Positions 1-7,360 of a DNA stretch of 64,000 nucleotides are shown piece by piece. Under the pieces are notes generated by a model that did not search any database, was not told the DNA's origin, and saw only the letters and a program-made list of their open reading frames with translations. Numbering within the stretch: position 1 is the stretch's first letter; each line of letters begins with the position of its first letter. The stretch lies in the NCBI RefSeq assembly GCF_041248615.1, contig NZ_CP158426.1. The stretch is one strand, 5' to 3'. This DNA comes from Escherichia coli. GTDB taxonomy: Bacteria > Pseudomonadota > Gammaproteobacteria > Enterobacterales > Enterobacteriaceae. The translations under genes and the position numbers were made by a program.

Positions 1-93
1 GCAGCAAATGCTTTTTTCATTGTGAAAAATTTCCATCTATAAGCCACCTCAATGTGGCGTCAATGAGTGTAGCACTGACTTTTGTTTCGTCCA

Positions 94-116
94 CAAAAAA
101 GCCCGCAGCGCGGGCT
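94..116 (-). terminator. Intrinsic terminator immediately after the 179-aa ORF stop
   Basis: GC stem agcccgc/gcgggct (100-116) with plus-strand A6 run at 94-99 (T-run on minus strand); overlaps stop codon 116-118. Confidence 0.55.
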
Positions 117-655
117 TACCAAAACTTGTACCACGGGGATTTATCCTTCAATGGACAATCCTTCCATCGTGTGGCCAACCATTCATATTCTTTAAAATAT
201 GTGTTTATGTTTTCTTTTTCTCTAATGGCTTGTATAAGAGGTAGCGCAATCTGATAGTTATTTACAACGGAGCTGTAAAATACTTCCTTAATCATGGTCT
301 CATCATAAGTTTTCCGCTTCACGCTCACAGCCATGCGTTCGTAGAAACCTAGACAGTAAATTATTTCTCTCTTCTCTGTCTTTTCTTCATCCGTAAGATC
401 AGCCTGCCCATTGCTTGGATACATATAAGAGCGGAATGATTTGTTCGATTCGTGAATGCGGCGCATAGTAGATAGGCCTTTCTTATAATCTACATCAAAC
501 CTGCTTTCACCAAGGAATACTGAAGTGTGTACTTTTCTCGCTGTATTTACATTATAAATAATAGTAGCGATAGCTATGAACAAGCCAAGCGAAACCGCGA
601 CTGCACTTACGATTTGAGCCACAGCCATGGCAAATTGCATTTCTTCACTTAACAC
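116..655 (-). CDS. Hypothetical membrane-anchored protein (prophage moron); no family assignable
   Basis: 179-aa ORF from GTG at 655 with GGAGA 7 nt upstream (alternative ATG at 640); single N-terminal hydrophobic helix AMAVAQIVSAVAVSLGLFIAIATIIY then charged soluble domain; AT-rich; own terminator. Confidence 0.55.
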   Translation of the reverse strand: MLSEEMQFAMAVAQIVSAVAVSLGLFIAIATIIYNVNTARKVHTSVFLGESRFDVDYKKGLSTMRRIHESNKSFRSYMYPSNGQADLTDEEKTEKREIIYCLGFYERMAVSVKRKTYDETMIKEVFYSSVVNNYQIALPLIQAIREKENINTYFKEYEWLATRWKDCPLKDKSPWYKFW

Positions 656-676
656 AAACTGTCTCCAGACATGAAA

Positions 677-696
677 ACGGGGCCTAATGGCCCCGT
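677..696 (-). promoter_or_regulatory. Perfect palindromic hairpin in the leader of the 179-aa gene (possible attenuator or stabilising stem)
   Basis: acggggcc-taat-ggccccgt, followed on minus strand by TTTC; preceded by a 10-codon mini-ORF with strong SD. Confidence 0.3.
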
Positions 697-840
697 CATT
701 AAACTATCCGAATGTTAAACGCCTTCGTACTCGTCAAATTTTCTCATGTGGGCTCCTCCTGTATCGGTGCCTAATCGCTATGGATCACCCGTGAGGTAAT
801 AGTAAGCTATTCACCTGCAATCTGTACAGAATTATTTAAA

Positions 841-856
841 GGCACATCCCTGTGCC
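841..856 (-). terminator. Putative terminator downstream of antirepressor gene
   Basis: Hairpin ggcaca-tccc-tgtgcc 10 nt after ant stop, followed on minus strand by TTTAAATAATT. Confidence 0.4.
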
Positions 857-865
857 GCCGCCCCG

Positions 866-1576
866 TCAGAAGAACCCTGCCTTGTCGTTGATGTATTCCG
901 CGTGAGTCTGGATATCACGCAGGCATTTGCTCACACCGACGATGTAGCAAAACATGGTGGTCAGCTCCGCCGCCGCGCCCGATACGTCGTGCCCGTCGTC
1001 CTGTAACTGGTTCAGCAGATTCATCAGCAGTGAGTTCTCCGTCAGGCCGAGAACACCAGACGGAGAATGAATCAGACTGCGGTAGCCGGGCTTCAGTGGG
1101 GCGCTGTAGGTTTTGTTCTCTATCTTCATTGCCTGCATCACTGCTGATGCTGTGGCGTTGGCTACCTGGTCGGCAACCATCTTTATGCGTTCTTCCTGCG
1201 GGAGCGAGTTTTTAATGTAACTTCCGGTGCGGCGGATCTGAGGAAGAACCTCACCTGTAACCCATTTACGAAAGCGGTAGGGGATAGTGCCTGGTGTCAC
1301 CGCATCGCGGCAGCGGAGGATCAGTGTGTAGAGGCCTGACTCGGAGATGATGTTGATCTCTTTTACTCGGCTGTCAAAAATCGCACGATGTTCATGCCCT
1401 ATGTTGAACATAGACCTTTCATCATCATCCAGTTTTTCAAGTGATTGGGTGACGTTTTGGATACGCAGCGCACTACAAACGTCTTGGGCTACAAACCATG
1501 GTTGGCCATCGATAATGATGGAACGGATAGGGTTAACAGATTCAAATTTGAAGATGGCAGTTTGAGCATTAGCCAT
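866..1576 (-). CDS. Phage antirepressor, Bro-N domain family
   Basis: N-terminal FKFESVNPIRSIIIDGQPWFVAQDVCSALRI matches Bro-N/KilA-N-type antirepressor signature; ATG at 1576 with GGAGAT SD (track ORF begins at upstream in-frame GTG 1591). Confidence 0.8.
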   Translation of the reverse strand: MANAQTAIFKFESVNPIRSIIIDGQPWFVAQDVCSALRIQNVTQSLEKLDDDERSMFNIGHEHRAIFDSRVKEINIISESGLYTLILRCRDAVTPGTIPYRFRKWVTGEVLPQIRRTGSYIKNSLPQEERIKMVADQVANATASAVMQAMKIENKTYSAPLKPGYRSLIHSPSGVLGLTENSLLMNLLNQLQDDGHDVSGAAAELTTMFCYIVGVSKCLRDIQTHAEYINDKAGFF

Positions 1577-1731
1577 GGTGGTTATCTCCACTTAGTGATT
1601 TTAATCACCACCGCAACGCCAATTACTGGTGGTGAACTGGACAAGGTTGGCGTACCGGCCTAAGTGGTACCGGCGTCCTTTCGGACCCCTGCCCAGCCCA
1701 CCATAATTCGGATATAGCTGTGCTTAACGCA

Positions 1732-1755
1732 TAAAAAAACCACGTCTGGCGTGGT
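1732..1755 (-). terminator. Putative intrinsic terminator between small paralog gene and ant
   Basis: Stem accacg-tctgg-cgtggt (1739-1755) with plus-strand A7 (T7 on minus strand) at 1733-1739. Confidence 0.45.
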
Positions 1756-1891
1756 ATGCGCCACTTAGTAACTCGGGACGCCAATCCCGGCACTGGATTT
1801 TGCCAGTGCCAGATTACTATGGCACAAGAGGAGTGCGATGTAAATTTACCGCAAAGGTAAATATAAGCACTCCAGTTGGTAATTGCAAACC

Positions 1892-2149
1892 TTATCTGGT
1901 TTGTTTTCGTAATTGTTCGGCACAATAGTCGAGATGTGTTTGCAGATCCCGCATAGACATCTGTGAGCTGGTGACGTAGTTAATCAGTGCAGTCAGTTCG
2001 GCAAGTGGGCCATCGACATTAAATCCATCCTTATCGAGATCCCGGAGTAATTTCATCAAGTGCGATCCCTCCACCAGTGACCTGACGCCTCCCGGCGTGT
2101 GAATCCTTTCGGTAAATCCGTCTTCCAGTGGATAGTGATACTGCTGCAT
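1892..2149 (-). CDS. Small hypothetical protein (86 aa), paralogous to C-terminal domain of the adjacent antirepressor
   Basis: ATG at 2149 with GGAGAAG SD; shared motifs with Ant C-terminus (IH-S/T-P-G-GV, LxExSxLMxLL, DGxxVxG, AELT, RD-I/L-QTH); longest ORF extends to 2272 but lacks RBS. Confidence 0.55.
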   Translation of the reverse strand: MQQYHYPLEDGFTERIHTPGGVRSLVEGSHLMKLLRDLDKDGFNVDGPLAELTALINYVTSSQMSMRDLQTHLDYCAEQLRKQTR

Positions 2150-2344
2150 CTTATCTTCTCCATGCAATAACTGTATATTTATACAGTAGCAAATAATTTG
2201 TTTGCTATCCAGCACGTTTTGCAAATCACCTGAAAGGTAATATCTATTCGTATTTACAGTCTTTCTATCCATATGTGGTTTTTCAGGTAATAGAATAACC
2301 AGATATGCGGCGCAACGGGTGCTGCGACTATCTGGAGATTTAAC

Positions 2345-4927
2345 ATGACGGTCTCAACCGAAGTTGACCACAACGAATACACCGGTAACGGAGTTACGAC
2401 ATCGTTTCCGTATACTTTCCGCATTTTCAAAAAATCCGACCTGGTTGTTCAGGTGTCTGACCTGAACGGGAACGTAACAGAATTGGTTCTGGATACCGGT
2501 TATACAGTAACTGGAGCTGGCACTTATAGTGGCGGTTCTGTGGTTCTTCCGTCTCCGCTTGCTACTGGATGGAGAATTACGATAGATCGTGTGCTTGATG
2601 TAGTACAGGAGACAGATCTTCGCAATCAGGGAAAGTTTTTTCCCGAAGTGCATGAAGATGCCTTTGACTACCTGACGATGCTGATCCAGCAATGTTTTGG
2701 GTGGTTCAGACGTGCATTGATGAAACCATCTTTGCTTGCAAAATATTACGATGCAAAGCAAAACAGAATTTCTAACCTTGCAGATCCATCACTTGAGCAG
2801 GACGCTGTAAATAATCGCTCAATGCGTAATTATGTCGATGCTGCAATCGCCGGAGTTGTTGGTGGTTTTGGTTGGTTTATTCAGTATGGTTCTGGGGCAG
2901 TATACAGAACGTTCCAGGATAAGATGCGTGACGTTTATAATGTTAAAGATTATGGGGCGAAAGGTGACAATATTAACGATGATACGCTAGCATTTATTGC
3001 AGCAGCAAATGCTCTCGGAGAGGGCGGAAAGTTATATATTCCAACAGGAACATACAATTTAACTGGTCCAGTTAATATACCACCAGTGAATATGTGCGGC
3101 GATGGGCAGGGTGAAACAGTTATTGTGTTTGACAATACCACATCACCAAAAGACGGCTTTGTTTTCGCTGCGCCAACTAAATATGATATTGAATTTGGTT
3201 TAAGTCACCTTACAGTTAAAAGAAAAGGCGGGAATGGAGCTAATGCTATATATACCCCAAGAGGTGTCGGGCTTAACCATCTAAGACCAAAACCAACATT
3301 TAGATTTTTATCTTTCTGTTCTGAAACTGCAAATATTGATTCTGATGAATTCGCTCAGAAATACGGCTGGGAATGGTCTTTTAACTGTGGTGATAGTTGG
3401 CAGTTCACAATCGAACGCATTGATGCTGTTGGATGTTATCAGATAGCCAAAAGTTATAATGAACAGTTCCTTGATGGATTCATTCGCACCGCTCCAGAAG
3501 AGGGGATTTTATCAATGCGTGTGAGTGATATCACAACGCATAATGTTGCAAATTTTTTTGAAATTAAGCAGAAGACATATTTTACATTGCTTAATATTGA
3601 TGCCGCCAAGGCATTACGAGGCATTTACGACGCTGATGATCGTATATTTGAAACGAATCGTTATGCTTATGGTGAATGTATATGCACAAATGTTGGTATT
3701 AATGCCCAACTTGAACCAGTACGGCTGGATAACAGATTCCTGCTCATCATGAATGGTATGTTTATTCACCGCGCAGCAAAAGGTTACGATCATGGTCTGG
3801 AATGGGTTGGTCTTAAGCTTAGTCGTGCTCGCGTGTGTTCATTCCAGGGAATTGAGATCGGCACTGCCAGAGGGTATTCAGGGACTAAGAAAGGGATTGT
3901 TCTTGACGCCGGTGATGCAAATAACTTTACCAATGTAACTTTTGGTTTGCTTGATGTGTGCGCACAGATTGGCGATTCCAATTCACAGTATGGTGCCAAC
4001 TTTGCAACATGCTTTAATAATGTGAGCATTAATGCTGACACCGTATTGTTATTCGATTTGCAGCTATGCAGAAATTTCCATTGTGATGGATACGGAGCAT
4101 CTTCTGCCTACACTCTTCAGCAATTCCATAGGAACAGTGATGACACAAGCAATACTTATACATTTAGTAATGTAGGTAAACACAATCTCTACACTGACAA
4201 CTCGCTGTACCTACATAATTCTGCTTCGCTGGAGAACGGGAAGAATATACGTATTGATACACGAAACGGATTATCTGTTAGCACTCAAGCAGATACTGGT
4301 TCCGCAGGAAATAACTTCCTTATAATTCGTAGGACTGGTGTTGATATAGACAGTTTTGAGTTAAGGACTCGCAGTACAGCAGGTGCATATACATATATTA
4401 ATACACCTGAAACTCATTTTTCTGGCCTTATAAAACCAACTGTTGATAATGTTAACTCAAACGGAACATCAGCATTTCGATGGTCACAGGTATACGCTGG
4501 TACTGGCAGTATCAACACGTCGAATGAAGAGCTGAAATTGCGTATTGAGGCTGACGAGAAAACAACAGAATCAGAGCGTCTTGCTGCGCTTGAAATAAAG
4601 GAAAATATCTGGAGGTTTAAATTTAAAGATGCAGTAAAGATCAAGAGTGATGGCGCTCGGATTCATTTCGGTGTTGGTGCACAAACTGTAGGTAATATTC
4701 TCAGAAAATACGGTCTTGACCCTAATAACTATGCGTTCTGGTGTTATGATGAATGGGATGATATTTATGCTCCAGAAGTATTGATTAGGAGTGTTAAAAA
4801 CAATGAAACAGGAGAGTGGTACGACGAGGAATATTACACAGGAAGGCAGATTATTATTAAACCTGCTGGCTATCAGTATGGTATCAGATACGAGGAACTT
4901 CTGATGTTTATTCTTATGTTTATTTAA
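2345..4927 (+). CDS. Phage tailspike: conserved N-terminal particle-binding domain, right-handed beta-helix (pectate-lyase-like) depolymerase domain, C-terminal peptidase-S74-type intramolecular chaperone domain
   Basis: 860 aa; ATG 2345 with GGAGA SD; N-terminus TGNGVTTSFPYTFRIFKKSDLVV typical of podoviral tailspike anchors; VKDYGAKGDNINDDTLAFIAAANA beta-helix entry motif; C-terminal S726-NEELK ... EIKENIWRF chaperone-like region. Confidence 0.85.
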   Translation: MTVSTEVDHNEYTGNGVTTSFPYTFRIFKKSDLVVQVSDLNGNVTELVLDTGYTVTGAGTYSGGSVVLPSPLATGWRITIDRVLDVVQETDLRNQGKFFPEVHEDAFDYLTMLIQQCFGWFRRALMKPSLLAKYYDAKQNRISNLADPSLEQDAVNNRSMRNYVDAAIAGVVGGFGWFIQYGSGAVYRTFQDKMRDVYNVKDYGAKGDNINDDTLAFIAAANALGEGGKLYIPTGTYNLTGPVNIPPVNMCGDGQGETVIVFDNTTSPKDGFVFAAPTKYDIEFGLSHLTVKRKGGNGANAIYTPRGVGLNHLRPKPTFRFLSFCSETANIDSDEFAQKYGWEWSFNCGDSWQFTIERIDAVGCYQIAKSYNEQFLDGFIRTAPEEGILSMRVSDITTHNVANFFEIKQKTYFTLLNIDAAKALRGIYDADDRIFETNRYAYGECICTNVGINAQLEPVRLDNRFLLIMNGMFIHRAAKGYDHGLEWVGLKLSRARVCSFQGIEIGTARGYSGTKKGIVLDAGDANNFTNVTFGLLDVCAQIGDSNSQYGANFATCFNNVSINADTVLLFDLQLCRNFHCDGYGASSAYTLQQFHRNSDDTSNTYTFSNVGKHNLYTDNSLYLHNSASLENGKNIRIDTRNGLSVSTQADTGSAGNNFLIIRRTGVDIDSFELRTRSTAGAYTYINTPETHFSGLIKPTVDNVNSNGTSAFRWSQVYAGTGSINTSNEELKLRIEADEKTTESERLAALEIKENIWRFKFKDAVKIKSDGARIHFGVGAQTVGNILRKYGLDPNNYAFWCYDEWDDIYAPEVLIRSVKNNETGEWYDEEYYTGRQIIIKPAGYQYGIRYEELLMFILMFI

Positions 4928-4930
4928 AAT

Positions 4931-4950
4931 ATAGCGCAGGGATGCGCTAT
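4931..4950 (+). terminator. Putative terminator after tailspike gene
   Basis: Hairpin atagcgca-ggga-tgcgctat 4 nt after stop; T-rich tail is weak. Confidence 0.4.
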
Positions 4951-5343
4951 TCAACTATTTTATAAAATTAATAACTATTCATGCGATATAATGTGGCCTC
5001 TTTTATCTTTGCAGAATTAAAAACTATAGAAAATATTTTGTATTATTATAAATGCTTCTGGATCATATTAATCAGTTTGCCATCTATTAGAACTTTGATT
5101 ATTGATGCATCAATTATTTAACATAGTGGTTGTGCGCAACTCCACTAACGATTGAATATAGATTGTTATTTTTGTTTACACTGTCACACAAGAACATCCT
5201 TACCTGTCAATCAACATTATTATTTTTTGATTCCATGATGTTGATTTGTGATGTAAAAAAATACATATTAAACCATATATGGATTGTAATTCGTGGTTAC
5301 AATTCTTGTTGTTTTTTTATGGTGAGATAAAAAAGGTGTTTTA

Positions 5344-5745
5344 ATGTCATTTCAATTAACAGGAGAGTCAATAAATCAATGGCTTAGCCTTGGTTCTCTA
5401 GCAGCGGTGATAGCAGGAGTGCCTCCAGAAGTAGCTCTTGGGTCTTTGTCAGGAGCGGTAATTTTTGTTACCTCTGCTGTAGAGTATCCTGTTCGTCGTC
5501 GTGTACTCTTGTCGATACTCAGCTTTCTTTGTGGTCTTCTCTTTTACAAACCAACTGCATCAATTCTTATAGGCATAGCCAGTCTAATTCCTACCATTAC
5601 TCAGGACTCTTTCGAGAAAGGGATTGTTTTCTCTGCTGGCGCATTTGTGTCAGCAATAGTCGCAGTGCGAATTGGCATCTGGCTCTATCACCATTCCGAT
5701 AATCCACGCGAGTTAATTCCTGGGAGAAAAGACGATGGTAACTAA
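5344..5745 (+). CDS. Holin-like membrane protein (3-4 predicted TM helices)
   Basis: 133 aa, several hydrophobic helices, charged C-terminus; first gene of lysis cassette upstream of endolysin. Confidence 0.5.
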   Translation: MSFQLTGESINQWLSLGSLAAVIAGVPPEVALGSLSGAVIFVTSAVEYPVRRRVLLSILSFLCGLLFYKPTASILIGIASLIPTITQDSFEKGIVFSAGAFVSAIVAVRIGIWLYHHSDNPRELIPGRKDDGN

Positions 5746-6043
5746 TGAGCTTGTTTTGCTTATCACCAATGCAGTTATTTGTACTGGCATAGCAATTCGC
5801 GTTGTCACATTCCGGCGTAACGGCTCTCAACACCGAAGGTTGGGAGGCTGGCTTGCTTATTTCCTGATTGTTGCTGCAGCTAGTATTCCTGTTCGTGTCG
5901 TCTATGCAATCTGGTTACGTACGCCAATGGCTGTGGATTTATCTGAGGTCATTATCAACGCTGTCATGCTTGCAGCGGTTATTAAAACGCGCGGTAACGT
6001 CGTGCAGATTTTTAAAATAACGAGGTCTAAACATGGAGATTAA
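5735..6043 (+). CDS. Holin/antiholin-like membrane protein
   Basis: 102 aa, three hydrophobic segments and basic C-terminal tail [19 protein letters not shown]; GGGAGA SD; overlaps the previous and next genes. Confidence 0.5.
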
Positions 6044-7141: not shown

Positions 7142-7251
7142 CATGGCATTTTTCATGGTACTGATTTCCGGTGACGGTATATAAAACGGTACTAGAAAAA
7201 TGAAGTTTTGGAAAAATGTTATCACTCAATTTGTTATGATTGTCGTAAATA

Positions 7252-7322: not shown

Positions 7323-7360
7323 ATCTTCAAGAATTATAGGCTTGAAGTTACTTACATCGA

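Follow-up and report, generated by a model that had tools for sequence, protein, structure and literature searches.

A predicted C4/IsrK-type control region upstream of the antirepressor-type gene of a phiV10-like Escherichia coli prophage

The heteroimmunity of phages P1 and P7 arises from differences in a' and b' of their C4 RNA. In work by Hartmann and colleagues from 1995, RNase P is said to make the 5' end of P1 C4, which is reportedly processed to about 77 nt. According to the P1 GenBank annotation, the introduction of a 2021 mBio paper and a 2025 review, processed C4 pairs with the a2 and b2 sites, blocks the ribosome-binding site and prevents the synthesis of Ant. The GenBank annotation labels the a1 and b1 sites 'putative', and even in P1 a role for them as decoys is a putative one.

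In the prophage Gifsy-1, the isrK promoter drives the antirepressor gene, and the mRNA formed by read-through of the terminator is untranslated (Hershko-Shalev et al, 2016, PMC4825925). Supplying IsrK in trans raises translation of the antirepressor more than 100-fold, and the mutations G28A/G31A and C162U/C159U derepress it. In the double mutants G28A/C162U and G31A/C159U the helix is regained, yet repression is not (224 and 327 units, compared with 4), and the authors favour a structural switch combined with translational coupling through orf45. A stable processed RNA, STnc1160, is found downstream of IsrK; its co-expression did not relieve IsrK toxicity (PMC4825925 throughout). Lysogens of Gifsy-1 show high transcription of both IsrK and STnc1160 under all conditions tested (bioRxiv 10.1101/787010).

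We analysed a 64,000-nt stretch of the Escherichia coli contig NZ_CP158426.1 (the window). Of the phiV10/epsilon15-like (Uetakevirus) prophage at issue, it includes only the right-hand ~7.1 kb, and host genes follow from about position 7360. Over the prophage region, phage HEMP4 is 99.2% identical to the window; the RefSeq chromosome NZ_LT599825.1 is 99.3% identical, and there PGAP calls correspond to ant at 866-1576 and to an 85-aa gene at 1892-2149. Given that the PGAP start of ant is at 1576, the spacer upstream of ant is 1577-1891 (315 bp). An initial annotation had described this spacer as structured and non-coding and had suggested that a small RNA controlling ant is encoded there. We put at roughly 90% the probability that a P1/P7-type immI module has its control region in this spacer, with all elements on the minus strand and with ant under C4/IsrK-type control.

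Across the whole 64-kb window there are two Rfam matches above gathering score, isrK and C4, both on the minus strand; a scan at E <= 1 adds only c4-a1b1 and a match to rli43 at chance level. Together with the comparative co-variation described below, these matches bear out the suggestion of one or more small RNAs in the spacer that control ant. The minus-strand RNA of the 245-nt leader folds beyond chance (z = -5.0; none of 200 shuffles was as good), so the spacer is indeed structured. The three inverted repeats that had been listed are all present: accacg-tctgg-cgtggt with its A7 run at 1733-1755 (given earlier as 1732-1755), ggcactgg-attttg-ccagtgcc at 1789-1810, and atttacc-gcaaa-ggtaaat at 1844-1862. 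That list had missed the largest structure, the 84-nt C4 fold at 1625-1708, as well as a second IsrK hairpin at 1774-1789. A tRNA/tmRNA scan of positions 1-6000 found none.

The isrK match (RF01394; 1809..1733, minus strand) scores 67.2 bits against a gathering score of 50 (E 3e-13) and covers model positions 1-77 of 77, marking a leader or short RNA of 77 nt. The c4-a1b1 match (RF03163; 1822..1770, minus strand), at 43.5 bits, falls slightly short of the gathering score of 46.7. The minus-strand RNA of 1809..1733 (fold z = -2.9) forms three hairpins: hairpin 1 at 1809-1790; hairpin 2 at 1789-1774, whose loop carries the a1 target site (AUUGGCGU, 1785-1778); and, beyond the b1 target site (ACUAAGUGG, 1769-1761), an intrinsic terminator at 1755-1739 with a U7 tract at 1739-1733. 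A terminator scan, which returned 9 sites where 1.5 were expected, includes 1755..1739 and its T7 run on the minus strand; this match and the IsrK fold agree with the earlier reading of 1732-1755 as a minus-strand intrinsic terminator.

These structures are kept among relatives. Compensatory changes affect 7 of 7 pairs of hairpin 1, in which 94.6% of cells are paired among 86 sequences, and hairpin 2 is 96% paired; the initial annotation had named a lack of hairpin conservation among related prophages as evidence against its proposal, and the compensatory changes in related loci clearly establish that the hairpins are conserved. For the terminator and the small inner hairpins of C4, pair counts from MAFFT alignments gave only 51% pairing, which we attribute to misalignment by indels; in their place we counted T-runs for the terminator, finding a run of at least five T ahead of C4 in 106 of 106 loci, and relied on the Rfam alignments for the inner hairpins. 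The leader of P1 c4 also matches the isrK model (35 bits, E 8.5e-6), and we therefore take 'isrK' to be the a1-b1-terminator leader of c4. The isrK and c4-a1b1 matches overlap in every locus examined; Rfam leaves isrK out of clan CL00128.

The C4 match (RF01695; 1708..1625, minus strand) scores 66.0 bits against a gathering score of 45 (E 1.3e-11) and spans model positions 1-87 of 87. The minimum-energy fold of this minus-strand RNA is the family consensus (-43.6 kcal/mol, z = -5.0), with a long closing stem around two hairpins followed by an unpaired stretch. The closing stem, parts of which were fixed by the pattern used to collect loci, is paired in 100% of the 86 sequences, with 6 pairs altered on both sides. 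When the annotated ends of P1 c4 are mapped through the Rfam alignments, analogy with P1 predicts a mature C4 of 75 nt (1702..1628), with ACCA after the stem. The loop of the second inner hairpin holds b' (CCACUUAG, 1667-1660), and the unpaired stretch after that hairpin holds a' (ACGCCAA, 1653-1647).

Both segments have complements on either side of C4, on the same strand. The b' loop pairs perfectly with CUAAGUGG at 1768-1761 and at 1595-1588, and CGCCAA of a' pairs with UUGGCG at 1784-1779 and at 1622-1617. The downstream copies mark the a2 target site (AUUGGCGU, 1616..1623), an exact match that lies 5 nt past the predicted 3' end of C4, and the b2 target site (ACUAAGUGGA, 1587..1596), which overlaps the ant Shine-Dalgarno sequence (GGAG, 1590-1587) and stands 11 nt ahead of the ATG. 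In the predicted fold of the ant leader, a hairpin at 1572..1614 (minus strand), closed by a GGUGGU/ACCACC stem, presents b2 and the Shine-Dalgarno sequence near its apex, with the ant AUG in its 3' arm. The stem columns (263-268 with 301-306) are paired in 93-100% of the 86 sequences; the changes are mostly one-sided, from G-C to G-U, with one pair altered on both sides in 4 sequences. The gene that follows, ant (866..1576, minus strand), encodes a 236-aa antirepressor-type product with a Pfam Bro-N domain (E 3.4e-19); PGAP calls it a BRO-N domain protein, and its homologues in related phages are annotated as anti-repressors. From its sequence and position, ant is predicted to be the antirepressor gene under C4 control.

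The region upstream of the leader carries two promoter-like sites on the minus strand. The upstream one (1860..1888) has a -35 element TTGCAA (1888-1883), a 17-nt spacer and a -10 element TATATT (1865-1860), with 9 of 12 consensus matches in a consensus scan; its hexamers are roughly kept in phiV10, ZX5, Tyrion and one Klebsiella phage, and it is the positional counterpart of P51a in P1. The downstream one (1816..1844), likewise a consensus match, has a -35 element TTTACA (1844-1839), a 17-nt spacer and an extended -10 element TGcCATAGT (1821-1816) that aligns with the annotated -10 of P1 P51b (P1c4). Its predicted transcript start is at about 1809, and the match to the isrK model likewise places model position 1 at 1809, 7 nt past the -10 element.

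Between these sites, and overlapping both, including the -10 element of the upstream one, is the perfect palindrome ATTTACC-N5-GGTAAAT (1844..1862, no strand). The initial annotation had counted it as a third hairpin; the inverted repeat is there, but it behaves as a DNA operator and not as an RNA hairpin. Its single copy in the window is uninformative because the window has only the right 7 kb of the prophage, and we therefore carried out the operator test on a near-identical full prophage and on phages. The 99.3%-identical full prophage has 10 operator sites at <=3 mismatches, compared with 1.4 expected (0 of 100 shuffles), an enrichment of ~7-fold, and three of the sites stand in tandem at 8604-8670, between the repressor gene and a divergent cro-like gene. 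In HEMP4 and ZX5 the motif TTACC-N5-GGTAA clusters likewise at the repressor/cro-like intergenic region. Among relatives the arms of the palindrome are invariant and the 5-nt centre varies. We rejected an RNA role for the palindrome on the basis of the invariant arms, the variable centre and the clustering of the motif. The repressor of the near-identical phages, whose gene lies outside the window, is a 194-aa HTH protein (WP_000836290.1) with a Pfam HTH_3 domain. It has no Pfam match to peptidase S24, and this fits induction through an antirepressor. By analogy with Op51 in P1, the palindrome would be an operator through which the main HTH repressor of the prophage controls the c4-ant operon.

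We then asked how the C4 segments and their targets vary together. All ten of the related phage loci (10/10) have isrK and C4 matches in the same order upstream of an antirepressor-type gene, and a pattern scan of viral contigs supplied 120 further loci, for 106 distinct regions overall; the pattern leaves loops and targets unconstrained. The 106 loci contain 35 variants of the b' loop and 6 of a'; the latter include CGCCAA, GACCAA, GUUCCAA, GGUCAA and UGUCAA, each with matching a1 and a2. We scored a locus when its own a' or b' had a complement of at least 7 nt at the expected place, and used swapped a' or b' as controls. Complementarity was found for a'/a1 in 99% of the 106 loci (0.4% when swapped), for a'/a2 in 98% (0% swapped), for b'/b2 in 84% (2.7% swapped) and for b'/b1 in 64% (0.7% swapped), so that the leader, C4 and the ant leader co-vary three ways. 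The distance from the end of b2 to the start codon has a median of 10 nt, and a large ORF directly follows b2 in 70 of the 106 loci, making C4 straight to ant the majority layout. For the 7-9-nt interactions in the ant leader, 45-111 of 1000 shuffled targets gave duplex energies as good; these single-sequence energies are only modestly better than those of shuffles, and the case therefore rests on the comparative data.

The curated order of P1 immI, namely Op51, P51a/b, a1, b1, c4, a2 and b2, is matched element for element by the window, including the spacing. Shared with P1 and P7 are the C4 fold, the two pairs of targets, the position of b2 at the ribosome-binding site, the regulation of an antirepressor, and tandem promoters beside a repressor operator. 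Unlike P1, the window has no icd ORF, a feature that is specific to P1 and does not define the RNA family; ant starts 11 nt past b2, so b2 covers the ant Shine-Dalgarno sequence itself. The a'/b' specificity also differs, with CGCCAA/CCACUUAG in the window and UGUCAA/UCACUAAC in P1; the b' specificity of phiV10 is CCUUUUAG. The phage type of the window has an HTH_3 repressor with TTACC-N5-GGTAA, whereas P1 has C1, and the element itself is an integrated podovirus prophage, whereas P1 is a plasmid myovirus.

The isrK-orf45(STnc1160)-anrP arrangement of Gifsy-1 matches the window in order and strand, and lies directly upstream of a Bro-N/antirepressor gene. Within 1520-1763 of Gifsy-1 (NC_010392.1), Rfam C4 is found at 1622-1705 with 69 bits, and isrK, C4 and c4-a1b1 all score above cut-off; in the window, c4-a1b1 falls just below. 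The terminator of the short RNA is in the same place, and a1 UUGGCG and a' CGCCAA are common to both loci, whereas the b' loop is UCGGUGAU in Gifsy-1 and CCACUUAG in the window. The ORF across C4 has 45 codons in Gifsy-1 but is closed after 14 in the window. The neighbourhoods differ as well: Gifsy-1 carries the module beside antQ in a lambdoid phage, the window beside the tailspike gene in a phiV10-like phage.

This comparison bears on how the Gifsy-1 mutants are read. The 45-aa 'orf45' extends across the C4 gene, and C4 is presumably the RNA named STnc1160. Numbered from isrK +1, G28A/G31A fall in a1 (UUGGCG, 26-31) and C159U/C162U in a' (CGCCAA, 159-164); judged by sequence, the published orf45 helix ('helix b-I') is the a1:a' pairing. 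The double mutants stay derepressed, as a C4 model predicts, because a2 is still wild type.

Homology with P1 and Gifsy-1 suggests how the region in the window may be transcribed and processed, how it may block translation and how the leader may act as a decoy. Transcription would start from one or two sigma-70-type promoters, overlapped by the palindromic operator, whose ligand is most likely the prophage HTH repressor. Most transcripts would end at the intrinsic terminator (1755-1733), yielding an IsrK-like RNA of ~77 nt that carries a1 and b1; read-through transcripts would hold C4, which would be excised to about 75 nt, with a 5' cut by RNase P as in P1. The b' loop and the unpaired a' of C4 would then pair with b2 and a2 in the ant leader. 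With the Shine-Dalgarno sequence lying within b2, this pairing would block ribosome binding and no antirepressor would be made. The prophage would stay repressed, with sequence-specific immunity against relatives that have the same a'/b'. The a1 and b1 sites would compete for C4, in cis or as free IsrK-like RNA, so that a high level of leader RNA would relieve repression and let Ant be made.

Processed C4 RNA most likely blocks ant translation, and by this analogy it would do so directly, because b2 overlaps the Shine-Dalgarno sequence with no icd or orf45 in between. The Gifsy-1 experiments imply that C4 is titrated by the IsrK-like RNA, and this is probably so here. We see the odds as even for a broader proposal: that IsrK (RF01394) and the c4-a1b1 leader are one element, a dedicated C4 decoy, and that every such locus is a three-site RNA switch. 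If this is true, the a1/b1 leader would draw C4 (a'/b') off the ribosome-binding site of the antirepressor (a2/b2) and set the threshold for prophage induction.

The same RNAs could have premature or Rho-dependent termination before ant as their main output, as with P4 CI or P1 icd-ant polarity, a reading that we consider unlikely. In the satellite phage P4, as predicted here, a small RNA is processed from the leader of its own operon and pairs with a single complementary site on each side (seqA/seqC), but the literature describes its effect as premature termination of a replication operon and not as occlusion of an antirepressor Shine-Dalgarno sequence. The authors of the Gifsy-1 study draw the parallel with P4 themselves, and in their hands IsrK in trans raises a transcriptional fusion 8-fold (PMC4825925); P1 ant expression needs icd translation (P1 GenBank annotation). 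In the window, however, there is no terminator-like site between C4 and the ant start, the nearest downstream minus-strand site being inside ant at 1397-1383. Given that b2 lies directly on the Shine-Dalgarno sequence and no ORF intervenes, a translational block is the simplest first step, with any termination as its consequence. A protein-coding spacer is much less probable. The 100-aa ORF named in the initial annotation exists (1623..1925, minus strand, TTG start, 7 Trp), and phiV10 and Tyrion have shorter minus-strand ORFs, of 87 and 68 aa, that overlap this stretch. Coupling of ant to an orf45-like ORF has a precedent in Gifsy-1, in which the 45-codon ORF extends between the C4 5' stem and the start of anrP, and activation drops when stop codons are introduced into it (PMC4825925). 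But neither the 100-aa ORF nor the other spacer ORFs match Pfam or NCBIfam, and PGAP makes no call here in the 99.3%-identical RefSeq genome, in line with the earlier view of the spacer as non-coding. The ORF ends vary between relatives, while conservation tracks RNA pairing with compensatory changes, and on these grounds we rejected a coding role. IsrK-type coupling through orf45 is absent from the window: read from the AUG that corresponds to the orf45 start (1704), the frame ends after 14 codons at a UAG in the b' loop, making coupling to ant impossible here, and the large ORF straight after b2 in most loci likewise argues against an intervening coding sequence.

On the P22 map, immI lies beside the tailspike gene. 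The initial annotation had drawn on this phage, and a P22-type immI would control ant through Arc/Mnt-like operators and a sar-like antisense RNA that is read from the other strand and runs over the ant ribosome-binding site. P22 immI resembles the window in that an antirepressor module, silent in the lysogen and with RNA in ant control, adjoins the tailspike gene, and the palindrome in the promoter region also fits such an arrangement. Unlike P22, with its Arc and Mnt proteins and a cis-antisense RNA from the opposite strand, the window has a predicted trans-acting, processed RNA, and both RNAs detected share the strand of ant. No sar match came up in the Rfam scan at E <= 1, positions 800-2500 have no plus-strand promoter-like site, and no Arc or Mnt gene is annotated. 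We rejected sar-type control, which the Rfam scan, the promoter scan and the annotation contradict, and regard it as the least probable of these readings. We retain C4/IsrK-type control of ant as the preferred reading.

A control region of this kind is well known in phages and was first described in P1, and the locus, though real, is ordinary and already known. C4 and IsrK together upstream of a BRO-N gene have already been described for APSE phages (bioRxiv 10.1101/2020.03.17.996009). All testable defining features of the C4 and isrK families are found here, and only the P1-specific icd and the Gifsy-specific orf45 are absent. What is mildly new is that IsrK corresponds to the a1/b1 leader and the Gifsy-1 'helix b-I' to the a1:a' pairing; a 2025 review treats the IsrK and C4 systems as unrelated and does not reflect their equivalence. 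The comparative data tie Salmonella IsrK to the classical P1 c4 mechanism, which could simplify the understanding of both. The module would decide whether the antirepressor is made, and would therefore govern prophage induction and sequence-specific immunity between phiV10-like phages; the number of immunity specificities can be seen from the 35 b' variants. A literature search for phiV10 and antisense RNA found nothing specific.

For annotation, the 'empty' 315 bp upstream of ant contain two curated RNA genes and a predicted operator. In RefSeq/PGAP and most phage records, these elements are unannotated or lie under apparently spurious small CDS ('Ash family protein', 'hypothetical protein'). 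'Ash family protein' CDS overlap the C4/a2 RNA region in phage ZX5 (1209-1322) and in Hafnia phage yong2 (948-1631), and look like spurious protein calls over an RNA gene; the 37-aa 'Ash family' product of ZX5 has no Pfam or NCBIfam match.

Close relatives also differ by apparent hairpin-loop inversions. The centre of the palindrome (1849-1857 region) reads TTTGC on the minus strand of the window and GCAAA in phiV10, and the loop of IsrK hairpin 1 is likewise inverted in one viral contig (5860-6126), with ATTTTG compared with CAAAAT.

Several observations concern the surrounding genes. Directly upstream of the c4 promoter, the 85-aa ORF (1892-2149, minus strand) is a homologue of epsilon15 gp19 and phiV10 p24. 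A Pfam search with it found no significant family; by BLASTP it has 43% identity over 74 aa to the C-terminal residues 155-228 of Ant/Bro-N (E 3e-16). On this similarity it is, we think, a paralogue of the Ant C-domain only, which may modulate Ant or the repressor. A DUF4760 membrane-protein gene (116-655), oriented like ant, lies downstream of it and is followed by a terminator-like hairpin. In P22, sieA sits near immI in a comparable position, and by analogy the DUF4760 gene may be a lysogenic-conversion or superinfection-exclusion gene.

The tailspike gene (2345-4927, plus strand) encodes 860 aa, called glycosyl hydrolase family 28-related by PGAP. Judged by eye, its N-terminus is of the epsilon15/phiV10 type, and at the C-terminus there is a resemblance to the self-cleaving chaperone domain found in endosialidase tailspikes. 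Since close relatives have an endosialidase-type spike at this position, the receptor-binding module appears to have been swapped. Directly after the last prophage gene, at 7164-7182, is ATTTCCGGTGACGGTATAT. It recurs at either end of the HEMP4 record, at 23 and 39787, and phage ZX5 has it at 7788, 295 bp ahead of the integrase gene. Probably it belongs to the attachment core or to the terminal overlap of the record.
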